Assembly: GCA_976226885.1 (NCBI GenBank)
Contig: OZ320316.1
Location: 62,248,001-62,312,000 of the forward strand
Direction: 5' to 3'
Source of the DNA: Iphione sp. A-MEVVRFRX5
Lineage: Eukaryota
DNA length: 64,000 bases
In this document: one piece after another, positions 1 to 63,773 of the stretch
Numbering within the stretch: position 1 is the stretch's first letter
Layout of the letters: each line of letters opens with the position of its first letter
Program-made: the position numbers and the translations under genes
The notes under the pieces: generated by a model
The model's input: only the letters and a program-made list of their open reading frames with translations
What the model was told of the DNA's origin: nothing
Database searches by the model: none

Positions 1-3000
1 TGCGGTGGCAGGACAAACCGCTGCGGTGGGTCTACACTCAGGTCAGATTTATTTATATATACTTATTTATGTATATTTAGAGATCGAGATATGATCAGAC
101 AACCGGAAAGAAAAAAAACGAATTCTGGACTGAAACAGAGATGTTCGGGTGTATATTTTCCAAAATCTGACGGCTGGAAATAATTAACAAAAGTAAGGTC
201 GTTAACCTTGCTCTGTCAGTTGTCAGCTGGGTTAACTGATGCATCAATAGGACACAGACATATAGCAAGTGTGTCAGAAAACATTAATCTGCCTGAGTTT
301 ATCAATTAAACACATCCTTTAGATGTGTGTGAATATGATTGAGAAAATAAATAGAGGACATAGGGCAGAAAGACCGCAGGCAGACAGGCATAGCTAGATG
401 GAGAGGAAGGCAATTGCTGTTGTCCCGAGGCGGGAAGCAGAAAGGGAGGCACGCAGATAAGCAGACACATGGATAATGCTACAAAGGTCCCACGTCAGCA
501 TCAGCAATGATAAAGCCACTTCCAATCGCGTTATAGTCCCAAAGGACAGCGTCGTTAAGTCGCCAGGAAGTTTCTAGACCAGAATTCAGAAAAGACTTAA
601 ATATGGCAAGAGGAGCACGTTATTCCGTGAGGTACATCACCTTTCATTATCGCGCTTCCATTGCCACGAATCTCAATCACTTTCCAAAATCCCAACGAAG
701 CAGAACTACTTGACATTGCCGCCGCGACGATATGGATTTCAACAATTTGAAAAATAAGCCTCCTTATCAACGTCTGAGATGGCATCGAATAGACGTCTAG
801 GGATCCCTTCACTCGATACTGTGGTTGAGTAGATAACGGTATCTTTCAAGTTAGTTCCGATCTTCAAAAGGTATTACGTTTCCCCCTTTGCGTCATGTTT
901 TATTTGCATGACGGTGCCGTCACAGGAATTGGGGACCTGCCGCAGCTGACATCAATTCTTTTCCTTTAGTCATATATGCAACTGACGAGGACAGAAAACA
1001 TCAAAATGATTAAACCATTTTTTTTCACAAAGCCCGCGAGCATTAAGTGTAACAGGTAATGAAATTCTGTAAGTCCGTTTTTGAATTTGTAGGGTTAAAC
1101 TTCAAACATCCTTTTTTAAAGATCCGACATGCAACAAATATACAGAGAAATATCTTGGAAACGAAATCGATTTTTGAAACCAAGCCTGAGACCTTTTTTT
1201 CTTGGATCGATGATATATCCAGGACTACGACATGTTATTTGGCCTACCTTAAGAAGGGACAGCTTAGATGAACTTAAAATGATCCGCTTGTGTTCTCTGC
1301 TATTTTGCACAATTAACGTTCCTGCAGACTAAACTGCCTTTTATACTATCCGTAACCTGTTGGCTGAGTAAAGAAGAGCTGATGTAAGATCCCATGGCAG
1401 GACAAACAGTCCTATGTAATAATCTGTTCATTGGTTTTAAACATACATTCTTATGGATTCATGTGGGGAAGCCGATTTTAGTACAGCAGGACCATGGATA
1501 TAGAAAACATTGTTCCGATGTAGTTTTTTATTCTTTCAAACTTCGTCGGGGGAGAAATTCTCTCGCCCAGTAACATCGTGCAATATCCGGTTGTGTACCA
1601 CAGTATGATGCCAGACCTCTTGGCGTACTTGGGGCAGGCCTGCAGGGCTGGAGAATACCGGAGAGTTGGCATGGTGGATGATTCCACGCCTCGCAGTCAA
1701 ACCATTCCAATGACGTGCTCACGATGGCCTTAGATGGTTGGCCTAGCCAGCTACAGGCCACATGGGCTCTAGCCTTCAGGCGGAGGGAAGATGTTGACAG
1801 GTCCCAGGATTGACGCGCCAAGTGCTCATTGTGACCCGATCGACAGGCTGGCAGTGGGCGGGGGGTTTGGGACATTAGGGACAGAGCACTGAGGCAAGGA
1901 GTTATTTACCCAGGCAACGGGCCTACCCAAGAGCTACTTCTGCTGCAAAGATGGCAAATTCTCGAAAGTCTACAAAATCGACGTCTCAGCCCCTTTTGAA
2001 TGGAAGGCTGCTCTTTGGGATCAACTTGACATTGGGCACTGTGGCCTAACCAATACTTGTGACGCTATTTCGCAAGTCTTTCTGTTTCCTTGGAAGATTC
2101 GCCGACTTAGAATCTGCCAAAAGTCAGCCAGCAGAATATTTACATCTATAACAAGTAATGTAGTAAAATACTGCATTATTTCAACACCAATAGATAGTCA
2201 AAGCTTCTCAGAGTTTCTAGTATTATAATATTTGTGTTTGAACGAAGGCACACATAATGGCGTATGACCATCCATATTCACTTATTTTGGAGTAATTGGT
2301 CTGTGCAGTGAAGAGCACATCTTTAAGAATGCACCTTAAGTACATACAGGATGAAACGCTTGGCAAAAGGAACATTTATGGTTAATAACATTTTACCGCG
2401 TTGTGTTTATTGCGTTGTGCGTTTTTTTGGCACCGATAAGATATGAAGAAAAACAAAAAAAGTTCACGTCAAAGATTTTTCATGCCATCCAGTAAAAAAG
2501 TGATTTGAGGACTATTGGTCTAAGTATAAAGTTTCAGTCAGAAAATGTGATAAATGTGATAAAAACTCCCACGAAAATTTGATAAATATTTGATAAAAGA
2601 TTAGCTTTTTCCAGTCAGTGGAATCACACAGTTTGTATTGTCAGTAAAGATATATCATAATCACAGATGGTGTTTGCAGTTGGTTCATAGCATTCAAATG
2701 ATGTTATGACAGTTTAGTTATAGATGCCCTGCCCAGAACCCCTATGACTGGATTGAGGAGAGAGATGGGTTAGGATCGCACTCTGGTATGCAAACATAGT
2801 TACTACATCTCAAGGCGGAATTCAGATTTGACTCGAACTGCCACACTGTGACCACTCTGAGCTCACGTATGTCATCTAGAGCAAGAGCAGGGCAGCATTG
2901 CACAATACATGTTTTGGTTGCACCCAAGACCAACACATGTTGCCAGTAACGAAATCTCGTTTCCAAGAAGACATACATTTTTAGGAAGATGCGTGTGTTA

Positions 3001-3289
3001 CAGAGGCAGTTCATGGGTTTCAAACAGGACATTCCAGGTAGATGCGATGGTCCTGTACACGAATAATGGCTAAATTCCAGCAAGAAAGGCAGATGGCCAA
3101 GATATATATCCGCCCCGTAGAAGCTCACTTCATGTCACGTTAGACACATGCCTCACTAAAAGTTTAGCTGCCCCAGGCATCAAATGATTGATTAGTGATA
3201 CCAGCTGCAACATGCAAGCCACAAGATTGAAGATTCAAGCGAATGTTATACTTGAGACCTCACAAACCTGCAGGCATGCTTCGTAGATA

Positions 3290-3995
3290 CAGGCAGCTTG
3301 TTCCATTAAGAGAGACAATATTGCCAGAAAGATCTACTATAGACGGTTGTCCTCTGTTGTTGCAATTTGATGCTGTTTGTCCTTCTGACCCGAGTAGAGG
3401 TACGTCTAGTTCATTTCATGACACCTAGCTTGGTCTGTATCCCTTTTAGTGTGTGCCACCTCATACAAACATCAGCATGTTCAATCCCACAGCATATGCT
3501 CTTCTGGCTGCAGAGAGGTAACAAGTGCAAAGCCTGGGACACCTGTTTAGATCTACCTGCAGCTCCACCCATCTGGCAGCAGATACATCATTTAACAGTA
3601 TGGCGGTGTACAGCATGCATGGCATATTAATTTAGGTAATATTCAGTGCGGTAGCTTCCACCTGAATGTAATTTGTGCGCCTGAAACAAAGTCCTTCTTT
3701 TGACTCCTTTTGGGTTCCACGGCCGATTAGTAGGTCCTCCAATTTAAATCCAAGTATAGCTCACTTCCAGGCATGTGCGACTGGTTTGCCTGTGAGAACA
3801 ACTTGACCGCTAAAACCTGTTGCCTTGCCAACAATCATGCAGAGACATTTGTCGATACTCAGTTGGAGATCCTCTGAGGTGCACCATCTCTGGACGTTAC
3901 TGCATGACAGCACCACATAGAGGTAGCAGATCTCCCTCGGCTCGCATCTTCCGCATACATGATTATGTCTTTCAGTAAAGTTTCTGTAGTTGCAT
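3290..3995 (-). mobile_element. Degenerate non-LTR retrotransposon (CR1/L2-type) RT C-terminal fragment
   Basis: Minus-strand translation across stops and frameshifts gives IMYAED (YADD-like), ILGFKLED (YLGVxLD-like) and ...RTTVYSRSFWQYCLS*WNKLP, the usual CR1/L2 ORF2 C-terminal signature. Confidence 0.7.
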
Positions 3996-16300: not shown

Positions 16301-18504
16301 CAATCATCGATAATGATCGCTTCCATGGGTCAATTTGTATCATACTGCTAGTAGGATAAGCAGGAAAACAAAAAAAGACAGATCTGGGTAAGGAATCAAA
16401 GGCTAAGTCGTTTAATACAGTAGACAGGAGGAAAGAAAAAGTTCAGTGAACCTCTTGAATCATACTCATGTGACAGTTTTTTTTCTATTGGATCAACTCA
16501 ATTGAGAAGGACTGATAATAATGTTATTAAAACGTTGTGGCTGTTTTGTCGTCTTGTTTTGTAAGGCTAGAGCGTGCTCATTAAACGAATGATGTTAAAT
16601 GCGTCATTAACCCGGTGATGGTTTCTTTTGAGTCAAGAAGAAATCCTGTAATCAATAAATCGTAATCGGTGATAATTGCACTTTCTACTCTAGCCCGCAG
16701 TGCTTTTTGAAACTGTAATAGTTTCATTAAAATTACATTAACCCCCATAACTAATCAGCTTTTCTTTATCTATGCCAATACCAATCTAAACTGACTCTAT
16801 CTGTTACGTTTGCTGACAAGTGCCACCTGATGTGACTGTCTCTATAGGCTCCACCTTATAAGACTACATGTGGCCACCACAGGTGCCAATGAATATGACT
16901 ATAAACGCTAATTGTTATAATGTAGCTAACAGGAGGCAACCATAGGGAGAAACGGAAGCAGGCGACAGATGGAGGAGATGGAGAGACCAGAGAGTATACA
17001 GAATGGCCCGGCGGAGGAAGGGAGTTACACTTTACATGCAGCAGCCACTCAGGCTGCACACTTGCTCTGAACACTAAAGATGTAGAGCAACGGTGAGAGA
17101 CAGACTTGCAAGCAAAGCAGAAGAGATAATGTGGCACCCATTCTCCAATTAATAGTGTTTTATTTATTGAGTTATTCATAAGTAGATCGCTTGATCTAAT
17201 AGTTTAACTTTCTGTTTACAAATTTCCCTATCTTTCTATTTGCTTGCTTATCTTCCTAGTAACAAGATATAATGAATGGAGAGATACAGGTGTGAAATGG
17301 AGGGCGTGAGGGATGGAAAGGAGGACCGAGGGAGTGGTGGGCAGGGTTGAGGGAGATGGGAGTAGGAGAAAAATGAAAACATGAGAAGACAGGAAATGCG
17401 AGAAAACAAATTATGACGGAGAGACAACACACGTCCTGACAAACATATTTCAGTTGACAGGTAGTGATAGGGGAAGAAGATTAGCATGCCAATAGAGTGA
17501 ACATCCTACCATCATTTTGGCTGCTAATTCCTCATGTATAGCAAAGATGAGGACCAAAAATACATGAATGCATATTTTTGCACCTATACTATCATCGCTC
17601 TGGTTTCAGATTCATGCAAAGTAAAACACCTATAACGCCCCAAATCTCCATGGTTACTAATTAACTCTAACAATGAATACAAACATCATGAAGTAGATAC
17701 CAGCTTAAAATTATATTGAAATTATACATTCGTCAATCATAGACTCATCATGCTTTTAGAAGTGTAGGTGAAGTGCGTTATTTCAAGTATTGGATTGATA
17801 AGTCATGGGTTGTGGTGGGGTCGAACACTTGTTTTAGCTAGAGCAACAAAGCAAATAAAGTGCAGGTCTTCCTCCAGACTGTCAAGGGAAGACGCACATG
17901 GTGACACTTTTATAGCACTTCTAACACTAAGAATAAAATTTATTATCAGTATCACTTTTTAATCCTTTTACTAGGGGGAAGCATGGTGATGAACTGAACT
18001 GTCATAAGCGCAGGTACATAAGGCACGAAATACAATATAAGAAAAGGAGAAATGACTTGTAAGAGATCATACGTATACCTATGGAATGGAAAAGAGTGCA
18101 GCAGGTCAGGTATAACATTTAAAGAAATAATATGTAACATTTCTAACATATCTCTTTGTTACATTTTCATAATACCTTTGAATTCTCTAGAAATCCAACT
18201 AACATTTCTTTGTGTAGACTTTGGGGTTCAATATAGAGTGTCTTGGACCTGACCTACTGACATGTGAACATTATACTGATTACACAACAGCATAAGGAAA
18301 CTGCTTCTTACCTACTTCCTGCCATTAGAAATTTCTCAGCTGAGATGTCAGCCTCTAAGGATGCTCTCTCCTGCTCCACTATGTGTGAATCCACGACCGT
18401 ATAATTTGCTTTTAAGTTAAATGAGCTTTGTGTGTGTCTTAGAGTCGTATGGTTTGTGTTTTTCTGAATTCTCAGTAAATAATATCGCAGAAAGGACAAG
18501 ATCA

Positions 18505-19223
18505 TTTCTAAAAACGTTTCCCTAAAAATCTTGAAAATGTTTTTGAAAATGTTTTAAAACATTAAAGTGGTGTAAAAACATTTTCAAAATGTTTTTGAAA
18601 ATCATTTAAAAATGTTTTCAGAAAACATTTTCAAATGTTTTCCAAAACATTTTAAAGCTATTTCTATAAAACCTTAATTTCAAAACTTTAAAAAGTTCTT
18701 ATTTTCTCTTCATGTATACTTTTATCTTCTAAATAGTCTTTTCTTGTGTAATTTCACTTTTTATAGAGGAGTGTTTTAGTTTTTCCATGATTTGAGATAT
18801 TGACTTGTTGGGGATTTGAACCCATGTCTTCTGCATTACTGGTGGTGCTTTTATCCATTTAGCCACTGAGTCTGCCTATTCTTAGCTGTGTAAATATATT
18901 GCCATCACTCCTGACCTCCTTTTCAAGACTTTTCAAAAAGTTATTCAAATGTTTTAAAAACATTATTCCATAATATCATCTGGAGCCTTTTGGAGATATT
19001 TTAATAACATTCTGAAAACATTGTAAAAACATTATTTTACAACATTATCTGGAGCCTTTTTGAAATCTTTTTAAAATGTTGTGAAAACATTGTAAAATCA
19101 TTATTTCATATTATCTGCAGCTTTTTTGAGATCTTTCAAAACTATTGTGAAAACATCGTTAAAACGTTATTTCATATCATTTGCAGCCTTTTTGAGATGT
19201 TGTGAAAACATGTGTTTGCTAGG
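18505..19223. repeat. AT-rich repeat element built from AAAATGTTTT/AAAACATT subrepeats, with a tRNA-derived core; ends ...GTGTTTGCTAGG
   Basis: Many direct and inverted copies of the AAAATGTTTT motif and tandem (TCTGGAGCC/TGCAGC)TTTTTGAGAT units; probable non-autonomous DNA element. Confidence 0.6.
18802..18872 (-). repeat. tRNA-derived sequence (A box GTGGCTAAATGG, B box GGTTCAAATCC); not a functional tRNA
   Basis: 71 nt with Pol III A/B boxes at tRNA spacing; only 4 of 7 acceptor pairs and a degenerate anticodon arm. Confidence 0.55.
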
Positions 19224-22481: not shown

Positions 22482-24289
22482 GTAAGCCAGCCGGTCTGTC
22501 AACAAGCCCACGTTTTATTGCTTTGGTCATGATTTAGATTGCAGCTATTGTAAGAAACACTTCAAACAAGAAAATTTGTGTTTGAGAAAGCGAGACATTG
22601 TGCAGTAAGCAGCCCAAGGCACGTTTACTGATTGTGATGTACAATTATTTGTTTACAATGTTCTTTCATTCAGGGAATTTAGTCATCATTAGGGACCAGT
22701 TTCTATACTTGCATTAATGTGTTGCATCTGCAAATGCATAAGTAGCATGTGGAGCAGGGCCTAGGGCCCAGCTTAGGATCAGAGATCCTTGTATAAAATG
22801 TACCCAATTTGCATATCGTTGGCACAAATCTATACAGTTCGACAACTTGAGATATTTGCAGTTAGTACCTAAGTAATACTCCTTGCTGAATTCCACATAA
22901 TTTTTTCTGTCCATCACATCTTCGCTACCTGTTTGTCAAAAATCTCTTTCCAAACGTATAAAAGACCACCAATAAATATTGATTTGAAAAGAACAATTAC
23001 CATAAATAAGTTCTGATATTTTATGCTACGAAAAACGTAGAAACAGAATGCGATCGTTAAAGAGCGAGGTATCCCTCCATTAAAATGATGTATTAGACAT
23101 GACACTTAATTTGCACATAAAACAGTGATTGGCTTGTTTGACCTTTTCAATGTCCCTACGTGGCGCAGTTGCCCCTGACATCTACCACCATAGTTTGCAA
23201 GCACCATAGGTAAAGTCCCAGGTTGACACATTGCCTGACCTCTCGGTCCGGTACCCACCGGTATCCTACTGCAGAGTCCCAGCCTATACCGGGAACGTAT
23301 ACAGTCATAGCCTTCCAACGTCTAATCCATCACGTTGACCTTCATGGTCGTAGTTACACATAAAGTGGGGCTGACGCCCTGTGGTTGGACACTGTCTCGT
23401 AGCATGCAGGATGGTCTCACTGGAAAGTCTCAATGAAATGCATAATTTGATGAACTAAATCAGTCGTATAGGACTCATTTTGGTTTAGCTATTCGATGGT
23501 GGTAGTAGAATTGGTAATCATGGACTAACTCACATTGCGATCCTGACATATATCATACACTTCAGCTGTGCTTAGTCTTAATGTTATTTTTATTGAAGCT
23601 GTCTGCATGGCAGAGATATTCAGCATAAGATAAATTAGGAAGGGTCAGACATAAGGTGGTATTTCATCCATACCTTATCGGTAAGGGTCACAAGGCCCAA
23701 GAGGCTGTATGATTTTACTATGCAGCTTTTGTGTTATATCTGTGAAGTTTCCATTGATGTTATGCTACAAAGGTATCAGTATGGACCTAGAATTCCAATA
23801 TTTTCACCCACTAGGGCAGCACTTATGGGACACTTAGACTCGTATATCTGTCGGTTTTGCCATACTATTCTGGTTTGATGTTAATTGATGAGTCCGTTTC
23901 TCAATTTTCCTGATTTAAAATTATGTTCTCCCAATTAAGTGAGTCGACAATAGATGTTTACTATTATGAAAATGCTCTATCTGTAACCGTTTTGTCATTC
24001 TCATGATATGTCACTAGAATGAGTATGTTAATAAACTGGAGGTACATGCAAATATTAATTGACTGCGTAAAGGAAGCCACGCTTCGGTATAGTTCTTTTG
24101 ATGCATTTCTAATGTCTGTTCACAAACAACGTTCGGTTTTTAGACAGGAACTGTCCATAGTCATAAGACGACTTCAAAATTATTGCGGATATGTCCCGTC
24201 TTTCAGCCCAGTAAGCTGCTTCCAATTTAAACATATTTTCGAATCTGCCACCTGAACCCTCTGTATATTCCCTTGCTTTTATTTATCAG

Positions 24290-24795
24290 GGGCGTTTGCT
24301 TGTCTGCGGGCGGAATTTCATCTAAAGCGTCAGTTCGAGTACTACTTCCTACAAACCTTTCTGCCGAGTGCTCTCGTCGTCATGTTATCGTGGGTATCTT
24401 TTTGGATTGACATCGAGGCCGTGCCGGCGCGTATCACTCTTGGCTTGCTGACCATCCTCACCATGACCACCCAGGCTTCCTCTATCAGCGAGCGATTGCC
24501 GCGAGTTTCCTACGTCAAGGCCATTGATGTGTGGATGGCCATGTGTCTTGTCATGGTATTTGGGGCTCTAATCGAATATTCAACTGTCAACGTTCTGTTC
24601 CGCAAGGACAAGGCTTCCAGTAAGAAGATGCAAATGGCGGCAGCGAATCGGGTGCCGCCAAGGTCGCCAGAAGGGGGTGGTGTCAAGGACAAGCTACTGA
24701 TGGACAACGACCTACCAGACCACCACGAAGCTGCACTGCACAGCCGCCACTCAAGCAAGGTGTCAACGCCCACCAGCGGGATGCCTCAGCCACAG
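24290..24795 (+). CDS. Gene A exon 7 (506 nt; loop C end, M1, M2, M3, start of M3-M4 loop)
   Basis: GAFACLRAEFHLKRQFEYYFLQTFLPS...[18 protein letters not shown]...LPRVSYVKAIDVWMAMC; acceptor tttatcag, donor CAG|gtgaga. Confidence 0.96.
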
Positions 24796-25230
24796 GTGAG
24801 AAGCTAGACGTAGTGACTGACTTTATGTGTGTCATCGGACTGCTTATTTATTTTAAATAGTGAGACAGCAGTGTTTGTGAACTTTGATAGAAAGACAACA
24901 GTAAAGGAATTTGCTTTCATATTACTTTGGCATTTTGGTATCTCATACCAACGGACACCTTTTGAGACACTTTTTTTCAATTCTATATACATCCACCATT
25001 AACCATGCTCTAGACTTCTGCTGACTGCGACAGTTTTTTCTTCGTATGCCGTTGTATTATTCTACGACATTTTCTTGGAAATTTTGTGCTAATGCTATTG
25101 AAGTAGACACTGGCTTTATGGTGATTGTCTTAAATCGTTTCTCACCACCTTTATTACGGGCATAGGTACTCGCACAATTAGATGGGATATGATTACTGAC
25201 CATCTATTTTGCCATCTGTGTTGCTTTCAG

Positions 25231-35300: not shown

Positions 35301-35483
35301 CTCCCGTATTTTCTACACACTTGTGTATTTTAAGGCTTTGATAATTTGCTTCGGTACATATCGGCTGTTTGCTAGTAATCGACCTTTATCCTTTGGGGAG
35401 AGCTCTTCTTTCACTGTACCCTGTCATTTAATTGCCATCAGCAAACCTTACCATGTATAGGTTTACTGAAATCGCAGTACACG

Positions 35484-35487
35484 TACA

Positions 35488-35521
<34 letters not shown>

Positions 35522-35547
35522 CATACATACATACATACATACATACA
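35484..35547. repeat. (TACA)n microsatellite
   Basis: About 16 units with one TATA interruption. Confidence 0.92.
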
Positions 35548-36259
35548 CACACACTGCCGTGCACAGACAAACGACTTATCCATTCACACAAAGACACAGT
35601 CCCCGCACGTATTGGGCCGACTCATTCAATTTATGATGTACATGTATAGAGGTTATGAAATGTATCGTAGACTATATTAGCACTATGTTACCAAATGTAT
35701 CGGTGGTCACCTTAATACATCGCACCATCATTAAGACCGCTTAAGCACGGTGCGCAGACAGGAAGCAGACGAAGCCAGTCTACGGCCTCGGGTGTTGCAA
35801 GACAGGTCTACAATCTTGGCCATCGAAACATGTCGTACTGCGGCATATTACCACGATAGGATACGTATCACATAGCAAGTAACGTTTGTTATTTTCAGGA
35901 CCCTATTAATTTTAGTATGCTATAACTGTATGTCTATAAGTGTGTTTGTGCTTGCGTGCCTAGGGGCACACTCTCCAGTATGAAACAATATGAATAGTTG
36001 AATTTATGAACTTCGTCATTTCATCTCCGCAGAAGAAATTTCTAGATTGATCACATTTGATACTCTCAGTTTAACAGTGATTTTTAGGTATGCTAGAGAT
36101 CGCTAGGAGTATTATTTTTCTAAAATATACATAAATTATGGGAGTGAGCCTCACTTGGCTACTACCATGTTGCCAGAGTTACAAGTGAATATTGAGGGAT
36201 TCGGCGCGACAAGGATCTGTCCACCACCGAGCGTTTCAGAGGAGGGTGAGTAATAGTGT

Positions 36260-36970: not shown

Positions 36971-38003
36971 AACAAGGGAATTCATGCTGATTTAGTAACG
37001 GAATGGGTCATCTTGAAGAAAGTGAAGAACTTTTGTCTCCTGGGGCATATGATCGGTGGGGCATATGATTAATAATAAATTTGGAAAACCTTTCATTGTA
37101 TCTTTAACCAGGAACTAGATTCAATATCCTTTTAGCTGTTCCTCCATGATCCTCCTGGGATAGAATACTACCATCTATTATTGAGAATTGAGCGACCATA
37201 ATACACAGGGTTGCCACCTGTTCTTATTTCAAACAGGTTCCTGGGTTTTTGTGCATAGAAGGACAGAATCCTATACATCCACAGCCTTTATAACAAGTTG
37301 TGATCTACTCTGGGTTAGAACTACAGAAAATGCATCTGGTCATGATCAAGAGCCCCATTATCTGAACCTGCATCAAAGAGAGAAATATTTCCTATTGTTG
37401 TTGATTTATAATATGCAATATGCAGGTCTCTGTGATAATGACTCCATGGGTAAAACTTGCAGGAGATTTTGGGCTCAGCTTGAGGTAGACAGACCATACT
37501 TAGTCCTGTTTTTTTATTCCTTTTGCTACAGGAGATAATGTTGGCAGAAAGACTTGCCTCCCTAGATAAAACATGCTGGTAACAAATCTGCTGTAAAATC
37601 AGCATAGCAGATATTACTGCCAGGTAGAGGCTGGTAAGCATGTGCTCATTGACATACTAGGGACATAAAGTGTGACAATTTAATTTATTTTGCTAGCTTA
37701 GGATTAGATCGATGTAGTAAGGATCCATATGATGGAATGGTCTTATTCAGTTCGTATTAATGTCAGCTAGGCTAGGGTTTTGTAGATACTTTTTTCACGT
37801 AATATAGGCCCTACTGTAAAATCAACACTGCAAAGGTTAATGCTAGTTAGTGAATAGACAGATCTGGCGAAAATCCAAACATTGACATATTGAAGACTTA
37901 TTCCAATTCAATTTGTACTACTTAACCTCTCTGAAGCCTCTGAAACTGGTCACATAACCTTCCTCATTTGCAGAAAATTTGACTGAACACTGTGATTAGC
38001 ACT

Positions 38004-38126
38004 ATATGTGAGATATAAGTGATTATATGAATATATGTCTCCAAGACGCTGTTGTCATGATACCGTAACCAGGTTACTTGATTGCGTCATTGTATTCCAT
38101 CAGCACACCACCGTTTGAAATTTTCT
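38004..38126 (+). repeat. Split direct repeat A1 (123 nt)
   Basis: 121/123 identical to 41941-42063 (CA vs TG); contains a TATA-like GATATAAG. Confidence 0.95.
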
Positions 38127-38155
38127 GGTGAAGACGTGTCTCTGGTATCTCAGTG

Positions 38156-38983
38156 ATGGAGAAATTTTGTAGGAAGTGTGAATTCAAGCATCCGCCGCCA
38201 GTAGGCAAGCATTGTAAGAGAATTGATTCTCCTGGTGATCCAGGCAGAGACGATCATGATTTAAAGAAGGATTCTCCAGAGGATGTGGTCGAGAAGCGCT
38301 TCCAAAAGATAGAGACGATGTTACAAGCCTTGGTCCTGAGCAAGCCTCAAGCTACAGCGAACGAAAAGAAGGAAGACCTCATTAGCTCATCCAGTGATGA
38401 TGGATCATCGTCAGAGTCTGATGAGGATGAAACGAAGAAAAAATCGAAGAGAGGTAAGAAAGCCAAGAAACTATTGATTTCGAAATATGTGAAAGGTGAG
38501 AAGGTTGAGTCTTATGAGGATCTTGTGGTGGGATCTATTGGACTCTTGAAGAACCTGATGGCTAGTGGAGAAAAGGTGGATGGTTACGTGGATCACATTG
38601 CCTTTATCACTGACCGGGCTTCAACTAAGATTTACACAAGCTCATCGTTGATCGAGTACGACAGAGAAATGAGGAAGAAAGCCAGGGACGATGGAGTGAA
38701 AGCAGTCTGTTACGGCGATACGATGCTTATACACAGGTGCCTCAGCTTAGATGCAACAGTAGATGTGGCGAAAGCGAGGGATTCAAAGAAAAAGGCCAGA
38801 AAACAGAAAGGGATCTGTTTTCGTTATAACAACATGGGTTGTGATGATTCCAGCTGTCGTTTCAAGCATGTGTGTGAAAACTGCCTCAAGGCGGGGCATA
38901 AATCAAGCGATTGCTTCTCCGCTAAGACGGTAGGCGGGGACTCGGGCAACACCAAAGTGAAATCGGCTGCAAAGAAAGATTGA
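38156..38983 (+). CDS. gag: Gag-like ORF1 of the YR retrotransposon (275 aa)
   Basis: ATG at 38156 in strong context. N-terminal CRKCEFKH...C and C-terminal CFRYNNMGCDDSSCRFKHVCENCLKAGHKSSDC (CCCH plus CCHC zinc fingers typical of DIRS-order Gag). Confidence 0.88.
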   Translation: MEKFCRKCEFKHPPPVGKHCKRIDSPGDPGRDDHDLKKDSPEDVVEKRFQKIETMLQALVLSKPQATANEKKEDLISSSSDDGSSSESDEDETKKKSKRGKKAKKLLISKYVKGEKVESYEDLVVGSIGLLKNLMASGEKVDGYVDHIAFITDRASTKIYTSSSLIEYDREMRKKARDDGVKAVCYGDTMLIHRCLSLDATVDVAKARDSKKKARKQKGICFRYNNMGCDDSSCRFKHVCENCLKAGHKSSDCFSAKTVGGDSGNTKVKSAAKKD

Positions 38984-41041
38984 CTAGTCGTTGAGGACAG
39001 TTTGGATCATAGAGAGGAGTTGTTTGGTGAGAATGACTTTATTGATTATGTTCCAGGATTATCTTACTGGACTTTTGTGAACGGACCGCTGAAGAACGAT
39101 TCAGACAATGGTAACCATGTGGTTGCTAAGGATGACATTGTAAGTGACGTTGCTGACGTCAACACTCGGGAGTTGACGTATCTTGGTGTTTGCGAAACAC
39201 TGAGAAGGTTCGTGTTGAACGAAACAGGACTGGAGGACAATAGTATGGTTGTGAGTAGTTTCAATGGTAATTTATGGTTAAAAATTACTAATGACTGTGT
39301 TCAAGGAAACTGTAATTGTGTTCACGCAATAGGGGGTATCGTTAGCCCATTGAGGTTATGCAGATGTTTCGTTTACCTTGCTAGATCTAGGTTGGATGAC
39401 AACCGGATCATGGAGTTGTGGGAGGGTATAAGCGAAGGATTTTGCATTGTGGATAATAATTGTTCAACAAACTATTCTTGCAACAATTATAATTCGATAT
39501 TGAGTGATGTATTCAAGTCTCAGATGGATGAGAAAGTGAGGAACGAGTTGTCTCGTGGTATAATTTCAGAATGTGATATGAGGCCTCGTTGTGTTAATGC
39601 CATTGGTGCTGTCCCTAAAGGGGATGGTAGTCTACGTCCTATTACGGACTGTTCAATGCCACCCAAGAGAGCGGTTAATAATTTCATGTTAAATACTCAG
39701 AAGGAATTCAGCTTCAAGTCACTGGATGATGTGTGTAACATGCTTGAACAAGGGGAATTTTCAGCCACTTGTGATATAAAGAGTGCGTATCGCTCGGTGC
39801 TGGTATGCCCAGAACATAGGGAATTTCAAGGTTTCAGTTGGTGCCTAGATAATAAGGTGAAGAAATACTATATTAATAATTCCTTATGTTTTGGGCTGAA
39901 GTGTGCCCCATACATCATTAACACTCTATCAGATATGATTGTATCTGAGTTTGAGTTCAGATGTGAGTCTAGGGTAGTTAATTACCTAGACGATTTTGTT
40001 GTCATTGGTAGGGATGAAAATGAATGTGTAAATATTCAGAGAGTGCTGATAAAAGTCATTAGAGATATTGGTTTTGAAGTGTCAGAGAAAAAGTGCAGCA
40101 CTGCTTCTACACAATGTAAATTTCTGGGCATAGTTGTAGATACAGAGAAAATGGAGTTATCTCTTCCAGATGAGAAGGTTGTCGCCATTAAAGAGAAAAT
40201 AAAAAACTCACTAGGAAAAGATAGACTCTCCAAAAGAGAGTTAGAGAGTCTCACGGGATCGGTATCCCATTGCGCAACAGTAGTGAAGGGAGGGAGAACA
40301 TATACCCGTAGCCTCTATGATTTGCTGAAGGAAGCCACCTCCCCACTATGTAAAGTGAGGTTGACTGACATTGTGAAGAGTGACCTGAACTGGTGGTTAA
40401 AATTAATAGAGGTATTCAATGGTAAGAAAAAGATAATTAAAACAAGGTGTTGTGAAGCAGTTATTACCACTGACTCATCTCTTATTGGATTCGGAGGCTG
40501 GTATGATAGAGATTGGTTTTTTGGTAAGTGGTGTGAGGAGAGTTGGCCTATTGACATTTGTATTCACCATTCGGAGAGGTCACCTGAGTGGGATGATTTT
40601 GATGAGAATATCAATGTCCTTGAATTATGGGCCGTCCTGGTAGCTTTGAAGCGCTGGGGCTGTCAGTTGAAAGACAAGATGATTTTGTTGAGAGTGGATA
40701 ACACCTCTGTAATGTTTATGTTGAGGTCGGGCCGCAGCCAAAATAAGTCTTGCATGAGGTGGCTGCGCGAAATCTTTTGGAACTGTTTCTTCAACAACAT
40801 TGTGTTCAGGGTGGAGTATATAAATACTCACGATAATTACATTGCAGATGCCCTGTCAAGGGGGAATACAACACGTGTTCTAAGTGAATTGTTGTCGGCA
40901 TTGTGGTCGCAAAGGGCTTGTTGTAGGAAAAAGCTATACTCTCTTTGCAGGAAAAATGAGGAAATTGAGGAAGGAGATGAAGCAGTTGAAGGAGGAGGCT
41001 CTCTCGGACAACACGAAGAAAGCAAGGAGACAGCAACTTGA
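38984..41041 (+). CDS. pol: Reverse transcriptase / RNase H ORF2, in frame with gag
   Basis: GAVPKGDGSLRPITDCS, CDIKSAYR, LCFGLKCAP, NYLDDF and FLGIVVD (RT); TTDSS, INVLELWAV, VDN and NYIADALSR (RNase H). The frame is open from the gag stop; first AUG is at 39245. Confidence 0.95.
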   Translation, partial: LVVEDSLDHREELFGENDFIDYVPGLSYWTFVNGPLKNDSDNGNHVVAKDDIVSDVADVNTRELTYLGVCETLRRFVLNETGLEDNSMVVSSFNGNLWLKITNDCVQGNCNCVHAIGGIVSPLRLCRCFVYLARSRLDDNRIMELWEGISEGFCIVDNNCSTNYSCNNYNSILSDVFKSQMDEKVRNELSRGIISECDMRPRCVNAIGAVPKGDGSLRPITDCSMPPKRAVNNFMLNTQKEFSFKSLDDVCNMLEQGEFSATCDIKSAYRSVLVCPEHREFQGFSWCLDNKVKKYYINNSLCFGLKCAPYIINTLSDMIVSEFEFRCESRVVNYLDDFVVIGRDENECVNIQRVLIKVIRDIGFEVSEKKCSTASTQCKFLGIVVDTEKMELSLPDEKVVAIKEKIKNSLGKDRLSKRELESLTGSVSHCATVVKGGRTYTRSLYDLLKEATSPLCKVRLTDIVKSDLNWWLKLIEVFNGKKKIIKTRCCEAVITTDSSLIGFGGWYDRDWFFGKWCEESWPIDICIHHSERSPEWDDFDENINVLELWAVLVALKRWGCQLKDKMILLRVDNTSVMFMLRSGRSQNKSCMRWLREIFWNCFFNNIVFRVEYINTHDNYIADALSRGNTTRVLSELLSALWSQRACCRKKLYSLCRKNEEIEEGDEAVEGGGSLGQHEESKETAT

Positions 41042-41888
41042 GAACTACAAGAAATTTTGTGATGATTTTGGGTTACAGTGTTTTCCATGTAGCAGTAAAC
41101 AAGCCTGTATCAATGTAACCTTCCTCGGAAGGTCTATGTGCTACACTTCAATACGCAATTATTTGTCTGGCCTTGTATATTGGTGTAGGGCCTATGGCTT
41201 TGAACCACCAGATTATACTGACTTTGGCTTATCTCAAGTTATTATGGCTTTAAAGAAAAAGGCCTCAACTCCAGCCGTCCAAGCACATGCTTTCACAATT
41301 GAAGAGATGTATTTAATTTTTGGGAGGCTTGATGTTTCTAAGCCTGATGACCTTATGTTTTGGTTGGCGTGCTTGCTGGGCTTTAGATGCCTGCTACGCA
41401 AGGAATTGTTCACTTCTTTGAATGGTTTGAAGTGGTGTGATATAGTTTTCACTGATTTTGGTGTAACCCTCAATGTTAAGAGAGGCAAATGTATTACCTC
41501 ACATGCGGAAAGTTTTTCAATTCCAATTTATTATTGCGATTCCTGCTGTATGTGCGTTGTCACCTGGTTAAAGATTTGGAAATCCAATCATTTCAAGTGT
41601 AATGAACAGTTGGTGTTTTCTTATTGTGTTAAGAGACATACGAGGAGGTTATTGTATAGCGATTTTATGCATTGATTAAAGCAGGTCTGTGACTTTGTCC
41701 CGGACACTGAGAGAGTTTCTTCCCATGGCTTCCGACGTGGAGGCACCACATTTTTAGCAAGTAAAGGTGTGGACTTGGACATAATTAAAGATAGAGGTAA
41801 TTGGAAATCCCACTGTGTTCTAAGGTATATTGATCTAAAGGCTGATCAACAGTTGTTGTCAGAGAGGTATGTTTCTGTTTTTCTTTAG
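40956..41888 (+). CDS. Tyrosine recombinase ORF3, interrupted by one in-frame TGA at 41673-41675
   Basis: GFRCLLRK (first catalytic Arg), then beyond the TGA in the same frame SSHGFRRGG (HxxR), GNWKS and VLRYI (catalytic Tyr), ending at TAG 41886-41888. Overlaps the RT/RH 3' end. Confidence 0.9.
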
Positions 41889-41897
41889 TTGGGTTTG

Positions 41898-41944
41898 GGC
41901 CTGCGTGTCTCCCCACTTTGGTGTTGATAGTCTACTTGACATAT
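41898..41944 (+). repeat. Split direct repeat B1 (47 nt)
   Basis: 46/47 identical to 42079-42125; the last 4 nt (ATAT) overlap the start of A2. Confidence 0.93.
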
Positions 41945-42063
41945 GTGAGATATAAGTGATTATATGAATATATGTCTCCAAGACGCTGTTGTTGTGATAC
42001 CGTAACCAGGTTACTTGATTGCGTCATTGTATTCCATCAGCACACCACCGTTTGAAATTTTCT
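41941..42063 (+). repeat. Split direct repeat A2
   Basis: Copy of 38004-38126. Confidence 0.95.
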
Positions 42064-42072
42064 TTTTCTTGC

Positions 42073-42078
42073 AATAAA
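42073..42078 (+). terminator. Poly(A) signal of the retrotransposon (AATAAA between A2 and B2)
   Basis: Hexamer in the unique 15-nt spacer, positioned so that transcripts would end in B2. Confidence 0.6.
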
Positions 42079-42125
42079 GGCCTGCGTGTCTCCCTACTTT
42101 GGTGTTGATAGTCTACTTGACATAT
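42079..42125 (+). repeat. Split direct repeat B2 (element 3' end)
   Basis: Copy of B1; runs into an (AT)n(GT)n tract. Confidence 0.93.
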
Positions 42126-44009
42126 ATATATATATGTGTGTGTGTTCTCATAAAAGCAAGCCCTTGTTTTTTTCCATATAATATATAGATTTTCAGTCTA
42201 GTTTAAAATCACACCATAGGATTTGAGTCTATGTTTGATGTTGAGCCACTTTTTCATAGTTTGCACCCCTCTTTGTTAAATTAGATAGAAGACAACAGAC
42301 CAGTATCAACTACATCTCCACTAGCAATGAGCATATATTTAATGAGAGGTAATATATATATATAGTGTTTTGCAATAGATACACACAGTATAACATCCAA
42401 ATCTCTTGAAAATGTGTTACATTTTCTACAAAAAATTCACCGAAAGACAAAGACTGACCAATAAGAATTTAGATCTAACTGAAATGATTGATCAATGATT
42501 TACATGTATTTTGTTACTATGGTAACACCTGAAGGCTGCTGATGCAATATCAGCGATGCAGGTGATGCACCTAATGTTACTTTTTTTGTGATAAATGCAA
42601 AATAGTAGCTTATGTTACACAGTACCTCTTTGATGCACAATAACAAATGAGGTATCAAAAGATCACAAATCACTTACCTAAAATTTGCTTAATAATAAGT
42701 TTCTCTCTCTCTATGTTTCTTTTCTCTCTTGCCTTAACCTCAAATGGGACTTTGTTGATGCCCTATTTCACGTATTATAGGTTCAAAGCTAGGAATTACT
42801 TAGATGTGGCTAAGATCCGCCAGTTACCAATCTGCTTATTTGTATTGTCTGCACTAAATTTTTACCAAAGTAAATTTGATAATCCTTATGTATTATAAGA
42901 TATTGGAACTCAGTAAATACCGACATGGACAGTCTTCGTACTTACTGTATCAAGCCTGCATACTAGGCAAGCTGATTAGTTGTCAGAGGCTCAGAATGCA
43001 CAGGGAAACAATCCTATGACCTCTTGAGTTTGTTGTAATACGTTTATACGTGTTTGTATCCAACCATAGCTACTAAGAGAACATATTCCAGTAACAACGA
43101 TTAGGACAAATATTAGATTCTCATGGTGCAATCTCGAGCAATGGCATACAACAAACTAAATGATCAGAAATACGGAAAAGGGATTCGTTTAAAACTGATC
43201 CTCCTCTCTGAAACAAGATTAAGCTTGACCTCCATCAAGGAGTCTAAATTAACTATCCAGTTTGCTATTCTAGCAAAGCATCTCCACCCCTAGTTCCAGT
43301 CGATCCGGGGCAAAGGATGCTCTTGCTTGTGCTATGCTCAGCGCGACCTGGTGAACTGATATGCTACCCACTGAGTTCCAGTTGCACAGCTCCTGGAAAC
43401 CGGACCCATCAACAGGGGGGTTACATGTAGTAAACCAATGGGAGATGGTGAGTGCGCAGCTCAACTGCCTATTTTTCTAGTGCTTATCTAATGCAATTCT
43501 AGTCGTTAGTAGGGGTGCTCTTAACACATCCGTGAAGACTACTCATCTGTACAACAGAACAGTGAAACAGCCCGGATAGGATACTCTGGGAGCGCTAATT
43601 GTGAGTAAATGAGCACAAAGTTCATCTTTAAATTTCATAGCCTCGGAATATTGTTTTATTTAAAGTAGATAAATTTGTACTCTCAGTACACATGGAGTTG
43701 TTGATGCACAAATGAAATGGGGCTCACTTGTTCCCTCGCCTGTTCACATATAGAAGAAATGATGTGTTGATAAGTATACAACACTGAACTCAATCAACTT
43801 GCAAGGTTATGTTATTTCAGAGTCATAAAAATCGAGACGAGATTTTATTATCAATATTTTTTAAAAAGCTTAAAGAGTATGATTGATTTGCGCTTAAAAT
43901 ATAGCTGGCACTCGGAGTGAGCCGTCTGGCCAGAGTATTTTGATCGACCGGTCCACAACTCGGACAGGGCACTACAGTTTAGTCACCATCTGTATATATT
44001 TGCAGTCCG

Positions 44010-62027: not shown

Positions 62028-62360
62028 CTAGAACGTTTATAAAACAGCATGAACGATCATATCCATGCATACACAATAGTTTTCTGGTTAGTGAGTTTCG
62101 GTAACGTGAAGGATTTATTCCCGACCACGGAGAGCGAATGGAAATAATTGTGGCATTTGTGCGAAAATATTCTGGATGATCAGCTGGCCTGTGGGACGTC
62201 ATCTTAGCAAAGGTTAGAATATCTGGCCTGGGATGTTGAGGACATGAATTAAGTAAATACATACTATCTAGTGTATCTATGTACATTCTATATATGGGCC
62301 AATAGTGTGGTGTAATCCTTAATGAAAGTTAAGTACATGCAAACATAACGAATAACTTAC

Positions 62361-63190
62361 TTTTGTTCGAGCTCAGCGATTCGCCCTTGGTCGCTGAGTT
62401 CTAGGATTGTAAAGGAGAGCTTTTCCCTGAAGGTAGTGCCAGAAGCCACAGCCATACCGAAACCCTTGGGGTCGAAAGCGGGGCCGATCTGGGTGAAGCG
62501 GCAGTCTGTCGCAGCTTTGTAGGACGTGACCGTGCTGTCCCACAGAAAAGCATAATTGCCTTTCAGCACTTTTTGGAAGCCCTCCTCTGTGGTGTTGACC
62601 ATAGCATCAGGGAAGATCTCAGTCATCTGCGTCCACATCTTGTCAAAAGGGCGCACTTTGGTGTGTTTGAAGAAGGTCTCAATACCGCTGTCGCGCACAG
62701 TGCCGAATGCAATGGTTGACTGATCGGCTAGGTCTGTCACAGAGCTGATTGGCGGATTGATCTTTTTCACAGTAAGGAAGGCAGCCAAGTTGGCTGTGTA
62801 AGTCGAGATCAGGATGAGTGAGAAAAACCACCACGCCCCGGTCAACAGGCGGCCGGGGAAGGTGACCGGTGCGGACTCCGTACTACCCTGCACCAAACTC
62901 CCGAAGATAAACCAGAAGCTCTCCCTGGCATTGAGCCGGGGCATGTCAGTCCGGCATGTTGTGCTATTTTTCTCATAGACGAACAGCGCAGCGCTGATGA
63001 GACCCATGCTAACGAGTGTGAATACCCACACCAGGCCTGACAATGGCTTCATGAACTGGAAGTAGGAAGACTGCATCTCAGGCGTGCGCATCAGGACGGC
63101 GATACGGCGAGTCATGAAGGGTTTTGTGAAGTCGATGACATTTTCACGCTTCGCGTTGATGCTCAATGGCGCGAAGCTCATTTCCGCGGT
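62361..63190 (-). CDS. iGluR 830-nt exon (end of S1, M1, M2 pore loop, M3, S2)
   Basis: APLSINAKRENVIDFTKPFM, SFWFIFGSLVQG, WWFFSLILISTYTANLAAFLT and NYAFLWDS; acceptor ttttctggcag, donor AA|gtaagt. Confidence 0.96.
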
Positions 63191-63773
63191 CTGCCAGAAA
63201 AGAACATCACGGTGAATATCGTTCGAAGACTCAGCATAGAAAAAGAAATTCATATCAATGATAGGTATGTCGCCTAAAGGGTTTGCGACAGAAATGGCTG
63301 TGGCGAAGAAGTCAATACTTACAACTGTACAGCTTGGGTATTTATATAATGTCAGGATATTGTAATATAAGCCTCTTTTGATAAAAGATTAAAGATCTCT
63401 GCTCGTTGTTTTCCTTATGATGTAATGCGAATGTGTATTTTAAATTAGTCTTCCTTTCTCCCTCTTTCTTTCTGTTGAAAAAGATGGATTCTGCATAAAA
63501 TGTGCAAATATGCAAATGCTATTGAAAACGAGTGGATTCTGTATACATTGTACCTGTCTATACATATACCATACATCAGACATACATTTCATGTCGCGTT
63601 CAGTGTATTTCTAGCCCAAGATGTGGATCCCTACACTTGAATGATGGGACAGATCCCAATCTAAGATACGGTCTGGATAAAACACAAACACAATGACACG
63701 CTGACATGCTGACAGGGGTACACCGAAATTAGACCTAAAGCAAAACATATGGACTTGATTTAACATAGAATAC

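Follow-up and report, generated by a model that had tools for sequence, protein, structure and literature searches.

A UGA-CUAG stop codon between in-frame gag and pol of an Ngaro-type tyrosine recombinase retrotransposon, a candidate site of readthrough

The subject of this analysis is a 4.1-kb tyrosine recombinase (YR) retrotransposon located at positions 38004-42125 of a 64,000-nt stretch of contig OZ320316.1 (Iphione sp. A-MEVVRFRX5), the whole of which is referred to here as the window. The element carries split direct repeats in the order A1, B1, A2, B2 (A of 123 nt, B of 47 nt), and its gag and pol genes lie in one reading frame, in which a single UGA followed by CUAG separates them. 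Readthrough of this stop codon appears, from comparison of the sequence with its relatives, to be the likeliest route by which Pol is made, although this is held with moderate confidence. The features of the element are the following, where ORF stands for open reading frame and aa for amino acids.

38004-38126, + strand: split direct repeat A1, marking the element's 5′ end; over 123 nt it shares 98% identity with A2, with two differences.
38159-38983, + strand: gag-like ORF1 of 274 aa, from ATG to TGA; 283 relatives at E≤0.001 in a representative library.
38816-38914, + strand: CCCH-like finger followed by a CCHC knuckle at the Gag C-terminus, recognised from the sequence, with a weak Pfam zf-CCHC match (E 0.08); a basic tail of 22 aa follows.
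38981-38987, + strand: UGA-CUAG, the gag stop with a leaky 3′ context; the sole stop of the gag-pol frame.
38984-39244, + strand: acidic linker of 87 codons without in-frame AUG, containing five out-of-frame (+1) ATGs.
39002-39056, + strand: core of an irregular RNA hairpin 3′ of the gag stop, present in three of three folds, not significant; a possible weak stimulator.
39245-39247, + strand: first in-frame AUG of pol, with 29 ATGs upstream on the element strand; its position is not conserved in relatives.
39296-39361, + strand: Cys-rich motif (CxxGxCxC ... LxxC), the start of conserved Pol by alignment, with the end coordinate read from the sequence.
39611-40135, + strand: reverse transcriptase (RT) domain, with YLDD at 39983; Pfam RVT_1, E 3.2e-20.
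40616-40768, + strand: RNase H-like match; Pfam RT_RNaseH, E 0.0032, under the curated cut-off.
41039-41041, + strand: pol stop TAG, 90 residues past the RNase H match.
40884-41888, + strand: tyrosine recombinase ORF3, in the +1 frame relative to pol, whose end it overlaps; first ATG at 40956.
41898-41944, + strand: repeat B1, 98% identical to B2.
41941-42063, + strand: repeat A2, 98% identical to A1.
42079-42125, + strand: repeat B2, the element's 3′ end, 98% identical to B1.

Ngaro elements are defined by split direct repeats arranged as A1-[gag, RT/RNase H, YR]-B1A2B2 and by having no methyltransferase (PMC8547959 and PMC4157794, in the parts available). It is the missing methyltransferase domain which separates them from DIRS1-like and PAT elements. 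The element in the window has the same arrangement, namely split repeats, a zinc-finger gag followed by RT/RNase H, a downstream YR on the same strand with an (interrupted) HxxR motif, and no methyltransferase in pol, for which the Pfam scan gave RVT_1 and RT_RNaseH only. By these four structural features it is an Ngaro-type YR retrotransposon (DIRS order), in support of an earlier note on this DNA in which it had been described as a split-repeat tyrosine recombinase element. The Pfam scan of the element proteins found no protease domain.

The YR ORF is interrupted by an in-frame TGA at 41673-41675, ahead of the HxxR motif (HGFR, 41724), and the Phage_integrase match of Pfam (E 0.001) lies on the part of YR after this break. 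The copy is therefore not intact and probably non-autonomous. This TGA, which is absent from the earlier note, is followed by TTA, not a leaky context. The overlap of YR with the end of pol (40884-41041, +1 frame) means that translation of YR raises a second recoding question. At its 3′ end the element passes into a TA/TG microsatellite (42116-42145), and a short ATAT-containing junction is common to both element ends and may be a recombination site. The divergence of the repeats implies a drift of 0.9%, which corresponds to about 1.8 nonsense changes expected in the element; with decay of this kind, the possibility that the gag stop is itself a private mutation called for serious weighing.

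As claimed in the earlier note, gag ends with the codons AAG (38972), AAA (38975), GAT (38978) and TGA (38981), and the same frame continues with CTA GTC GTT GAG GAC AGT TTG GAT; a listing of the frames confirmed the 87 sense codons ahead of the first AUG at 39245. Stops of the gag-pol frame are located at 38129, 38981 and 41039, and the TGA at 38981-38983 is the only one between the gag ATG at 38159 and the end of pol (960 codons). The side frames are shut fast, the +1 frame at once by TAG 38985 and the -1 frame, which is open from 38926 to 38991, after four codons by TGA 38992. No slippery heptamer of the type X_XXY_YYZ was found in gag of the element, and the layout is not that of a -1 frameshift, pol being in frame 0 to gag. 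Due to the closed side frames and the lack of a slippery heptamer in gag, frame 0 is the only route from gag into pol. The junction has the features of UGA_CUAG-type readthrough, i.e. a single in-frame UGA, CUAG directly after it and an open coding frame beyond. CTAG follows 2 of the 2520 TGAs of the window (both strands) and 1 of 129 in the element, with 0.35% expected from base composition. The net charge switches from +3 to -6 exactly at the gag stop, where the basic tail gives way to the acidic linker.

A private origin of the stop would mean that the family has one gag-pol ORF and that TGA 38981 is a nonsense mutation like that of YR, as the second in-frame TGA of the copy (41673) and the number of nonsense changes expected from drift could suggest. 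Against this stand the position of the stop exactly at the basic-to-acidic switch, where the Gags of relatives end, and the fact that, of 589 other single-step changes able to create a nonsense codon in the element, only 2 would yield TGA-CTAG. For the analysis of Gag the best 150 of the 283 relatives were used. The knuckle pattern was recognisable in 132 of these, and 125 of the 150 stop 4-20 residues past the knuckle; none is fused to Pol. Conversely, a search with the Gag profile found no Gag in 204 Pol-side sequences (136 from Pol searches and 68 cluster members), so that the case named in the earlier note as refuting, in which most copies have a sense codon at this position, does not hold at the level of the family. 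The longest Pol among 104 matches had at most 827 aa, in a search which allowed up to 1199 aa and scored the 7990 best candidates. A search for longer, fused forms returned three long terminal repeat (LTR)-type polyproteins only, which given its range of 1113-3175 aa is weak evidence, and a word-indexed Gag search gave none among 809 candidates. In one cluster look-up 10 of 10 Gags were singletons; the Atlas look-up returned eukaryotic clusters only. Judged by these sequences, a Gag end after the knuckle is the family rule, which makes a single ORF disrupted by a nonsense change highly improbable.

The residue directly before the stop is Lys in 82 of the 125 related Gags, compared with a mean of 34 and a maximum of 56 in random draws of tail residues, although such counts are inflated by the relatedness of the Gags. 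In one Gag subclade 42 of 43 members end in Lys despite variable tail length, the exception being the run-on Gag P0174. The terminal Lys suggests a conserved stop signal in the related Gags; a need for it at the protein level is possible. In yeast two adenines 5′ of the stop favour readthrough, and in Euplotes AAA-UAR is a +1 shift site. Two other explanations of the terminal Lys were rejected. An AUGA stop-start, also considered as a family rule, occurred in 17 of 62 cases against a background of 32%, in a test weakened by the gene caller possibly starting at GTG or TTG. Slippery heptamers do not account for it either, as tripeptides compatible with them were not enriched in the Gag tails of relatives (72 of 125 vs a shuffle mean of 73.2; also 23 vs 24.4). 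In a FastTree Gag tree of 129 rows the Gag of the element sits on a long branch.

Several measures indicate that the linker is coding, all of them by composition and not by the ratio of nonsynonymous to synonymous substitution rates (dN/dS). It was free of stops in 45 of 20,000 base shuffles, and a length of 87 codons was reached by 61 of the 6494 stop-to-stop segments outside the element. Its score for the composition of the relatives' pol extensions, 14.3, was reached by none of 1297 null segments. When the linker was divided, null segments scoring as high numbered 4 of 4709 for the first 24 codons, 1 of 3532 for the middle 32 and 73 of 3646 for the last 31. From its first 24 codons on, the linker thus looks coding on the basis of its composition. 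The CxxGxCxC motif is carried by 53 of the 104 Pol matches, and in all 53 a variable acidic open frame of 41-245 residues precedes it. The Cys-rich motif at 39296-39361 matches no Pfam family; it is specific to the clade and possibly a zinc site. Because only 13 of the 53 relatives have a Met within the last 25 residues before the motif, AUG 39245 is, by this comparison, not a conserved start.

A further rival accepts the in-frame stop as belonging to the family but has Pol made without its decoding, by initiation or reinitiation at AUG 39245 or at a non-AUG codon, by an internal promoter, from a spliced RNA, or by a bypass like that of Tca2, an LTR retrotransposon of Candida albicans. A Pol starting from Met88 would keep the entire conserved region, as the Cys motif lies at residue 105. 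Scanning to AUG 39245 is opposed by the 29 upstream ATGs, five of them inside the linker, and by the lack of conservation of this AUG in relatives. A pair of splice sites in compatible phase (both phase 1) can be written, with a gag donor at 38496 (8 of 9 consensus positions) and a pyrimidine-rich YAG acceptor at 39056 (12 of 17), but splice-like sites are common in the element (20 of 269 GT and 9 of 94 YAG score similarly in a crude consensus count) and the 24 codons ahead of the acceptor are already coding-like. The Tca2 junction showed minor promoter activity in yeast (PMC2194720, in the part available). Bypass of any kind leaves CUAG unexplained, and this rival is considered unlikely.

The frame relation of gag and pol in relatives was approached through Gags that run on past the usual end. 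Frames were assigned with a codon model, which made no error on 21 held-out linkers and gave a wrong call for 0 of 60 and 3 of 60 linkers shifted in simulation. Six run-on tails were scored, of which two, P0111 and P0161, were informative; the model preferred the linker frame for them by 23 and 10 log units, which is what loss of the stop in an in-frame layout would predict. In a shifted frame, the Pol Cys motif can be read at the end of P0111 (1 of 2000 shuffles; an internal match in one other of the 150 Gags), and this tail therefore runs into pol. Compared directly with Pol linkers, it showed no significant similarity (best E 0.75). The short run-on tails of P0133, P0231 and P0131 look like natural long tails and were left out of the evidence.

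Structure-stimulated readthrough of the alphavirus or MuLV (murine leukaemia virus) type calls for a stable stem-loop or pseudoknot 8-12 nt past the stop. RNA structure 3′ of the stop was assessed by minimum-energy folding, a model which does not include pseudoknots. The fold of the 200 nt past the stop, proposed in the earlier note, gave a z-score of -1.33, and those of 92 nt and 147 nt gave -1.94 and -1.80; 19, 10 and 6 of 200 shuffles, respectively, were as stable. The 7-bp pairing suggested in the same note as a 3′ stimulator (38986-38992 with 39095-39101) can be written, but it occurs in none of the three folds. Selenocysteine recoding was rejected as an explanation: no selenocysteine insertion sequence (SECIS) was found in an Rfam scan of 37900-42300 to E=1, which gave one weak small nucleolar RNA match under the gathering score.

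In layout the closest known systems are Tca2 and murine leukaemia virus (MuLV), in which gag and pol share one frame with a single stop between them (UGA in Tca2, UAG in MuLV) and in which this stop sets a low Pol:Gag ratio (PMC2194720, in the part available). These are LTR/integrase elements with a protease, and they have a purine-rich spacer and a pseudoknot, whereas folding of the element described here gave no significant structure. In signal, the stop and the four bases 3′ of it are identical to those of the cellular UGA_CUAG motif (OPRL1, DUS4L and others) and of the alphavirus UGA readthrough site, whose product is also a polymerase, as far as the available parts of the sources describe them. 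In alphaviruses the signal also comprises a stem-loop 3′ of the stop, conserved and able to increase readthrough by as much as 10-fold (PMC8310308, in the part available), compared with which the hairpin of the element is marginal. UGA_CUAG systems have been shown in mammalian genes and RNA viruses, and none in retroelements was met in the literature searched. The layout is that of MuLV and Tca2 and the signal that of OPRL1 and alphaviruses; the mechanism is well known and its setting is new, and it is not a new kind of biology.

That readthrough is not established for DIRS-order elements, as the earlier note had supposed, agrees with the literature search, which met neither readthrough nor frameshifting described for DIRS or Ngaro elements; outside its scope were the majority of papers behind subscription, Goodwin and Poulter 2004 among them, and the Repbase entries, and an earlier mention is possible. 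The available parts of PMC6681497, PMC3783388, PMC7192593, PMC3266345, PMC12440569, PMC2632668 (with two supplements) and PMC8310308 contain no such mention, and DIRS does not appear in the available part of PMC5009743. In the accessible descriptions DIRS-order elements have three, often overlapping ORFs, with nothing on the translation of pol.

A number of observations weigh against readthrough. The element is represented by one copy only, with no sister copy in the window and 46% identity to the best-matching protein relative, and the copy shows decay, having a nonsense codon in YR and repeats 98% alike. Its Gag ends in Asp, as does none of the 125 relatives with a tail of 4-20 aa, and its 22-aa tail after the knuckle exceeds the tails of those 125; this atypical end fits a lineage-specific signal and fits decay too. 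None of the three folds revealed significant 3′ structure. The data on CUAG readthrough come from mammalian cells and the host here is another animal, and the flanks of the Tca2 stop, in the same layout, gave no directed readthrough in yeast (PMC2194720, in the part available). The tail of P0174 reads in the +1 frame of a linker (11 log units), which fits an in-frame or a shifted layout. More generally, run-on tails may stem from insertions or deletions (indels), and UGA-CUA is certain in none of P0111, P0161 and P0174; for each tail, an in-frame layout that lost its stop or underwent a small deletion is one reading, and a shifted layout with an indel is the other. Published Ngaro elements differ from the present one in that their ORFs overlap, alternate in frame or are usually without overlap, with no mention of an in-frame gag stop in the parts available: the amphioxus Ngaro is annotated as 'on alternate reading frames' (PMC2632668 supplement), the Xenopus Ngaro ORFs overlap, and Ngaro elements are said usually to be without ORF overlaps (PMC3266345).

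To these is added the only relative with DNA, referred to as L002, which has pol in the -1 frame overlapping gag, with A_AAA_AAC at the gag end. It was the one relative among 12 matches in a scan of GTDB with the distant-clade alignment. Scanned with the near-clade alignment, GTDB yielded 46 matches to the pattern and no relative, the phage collection gave no match, and the plasmid scan gave one 28% match to an LTR-type element. L002 (contig JBEVXV010000245.1, 1-4976) is an intact Ngaro-type element which shares with the window element the split direct repeats (99-100% identical), the gag/RT/YR order and a weak match to the Gag profile (E 5e-5); it differs in the -1 overlap, in lacking a long acidic linker and in a YR that does not overlap pol. 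Its gag ends TCA AAA AAC CAA TAG, with A_AAA_AAC (1692-1704), the only slippery heptamer in that gag, two codons ahead of TAG. The 92 nt past the slippery site fold no better than shuffles (z -0.21). By its sequence the junction is a candidate -1 frameshift site in a DIRS-order element. A_AAA_AAC is among the most shifty sites on mammalian ribosomes (PMC5009743, in the part available). From the layout of L002 and those of the amphioxus and Xenopus ORFs it follows that readthrough is no rule for all Ngaro elements. L002 stands as a complete eukaryotic-type retrotransposon inside a Sedimenticola metagenome-assembled genome in GTDB and is probably host contamination.

The family design could accordingly be one of overlapping genes and ribosomal frameshifting, as it seems to be in L002, in which case a private indel put gag and pol in frame in the present copy and CTAG is coincidental. 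The overlapping or alternate-frame ORFs of published Ngaro elements, the decay of the copy, its long Gag tail, in which the customary final Lys is missing, and the open -1 frame across 38926-38991 would agree with this. It requires an indel within a short window in addition to a 0.35% context, however, and gag of the element has no slippery heptamer, nor are slippery-compatible tripeptides enriched in the tails of relatives. An alternative-frame knuckle was found in the first 60 residues of none of 80 Pol N-termini, and a long gag/pol overlap likewise in 0 of 80. Furthermore, L002 falls outside the 99%-supported clade holding the window element in a quick Pol tree of 58 rows, which comprised a subset of the 104 Pol matches, L002 and two LTR outgroups, with one named tardigrade protein (P0096) and no named reference Ngaro. 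Taken together, frameshifting as the family design with a private indel here is regarded as distinctly improbable.

Readthrough of UGA 38981 is favoured because each of the rivals needs the 0.35% context by coincidence, a likelihood argument; confidence is held back because one decayed copy is at hand, the site was picked out post hoc and the Tca2 layout can be bypassed otherwise. According to the proposed mechanism, one RNA would be translated from ATG 38159 and most ribosomes would halt at UGA 38981, freeing the 274-aa Gag. A few percent of the ribosomes may insert an amino acid at UGA, the CUAG context weakening termination; in human cells UGA_CUAG readthrough amounts to about 1.5-17% (PMC9841425, in the part available). 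These ribosomes would go on through the acidic 87-residue linker to give a 960-aa Gag-linker-RT/RNase H fusion, through which RT could enter Gag particles in a low, fixed proportion. As no protease was found, the fusion is probably not cleaved by itself. We infer the occurrence of readthrough and its level, the function of the fusion, and that the signal is a trait of the family and no peculiarity of the present copy. A broader scheme is put forward tentatively and is itself rather doubtful: a wide animal clade of Ngaro elements may have gag and pol in frame with Pol controlled by recoding at the gag stop, in most members via Lys-stop, in the lineage of the window element via UGA-CUAG and in a sister clade via -1 frameshifting at A_AAA_AAC.

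If readthrough is true, gag-pol readthrough would extend from retroviruses and LTR elements to tyrosine recombinase retrotransposons, and a motif of mammals and alphaviruses would be seen to operate in a genome of invertebrate appearance, within a short cassette open to direct reporter assay. Annotators would call such copies broken by a premature stop although they are intact at this site. Recoding throughout the clade, if true, would provide the first account of Pol expression in DIRS-order elements, in which a single superfamily would switch between recoding modes and the working enzyme would be a Gag-RT fusion left uncleaved.

Outside the element, the window contains host exons for the transmembrane region of a Cys-loop ligand-gated channel (24256-24807, + strand) and for a kainate-like ionotropic glutamate receptor (62357-63388, - strand), and the host is therefore an animal. 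An AT-rich minisatellite with units of about 55-69 nt and short inverted repeats lies at 18500-19210, and a TACA microsatellite at 35470-35560. Elsewhere, a record of 5.3 kb that bears the label of a Wolbachia plasmid (NZ_CP087956.1) has annotated retropepsin, RT and RNase H genes at 808-3546 and looks like a circle of a host LTR retroelement.

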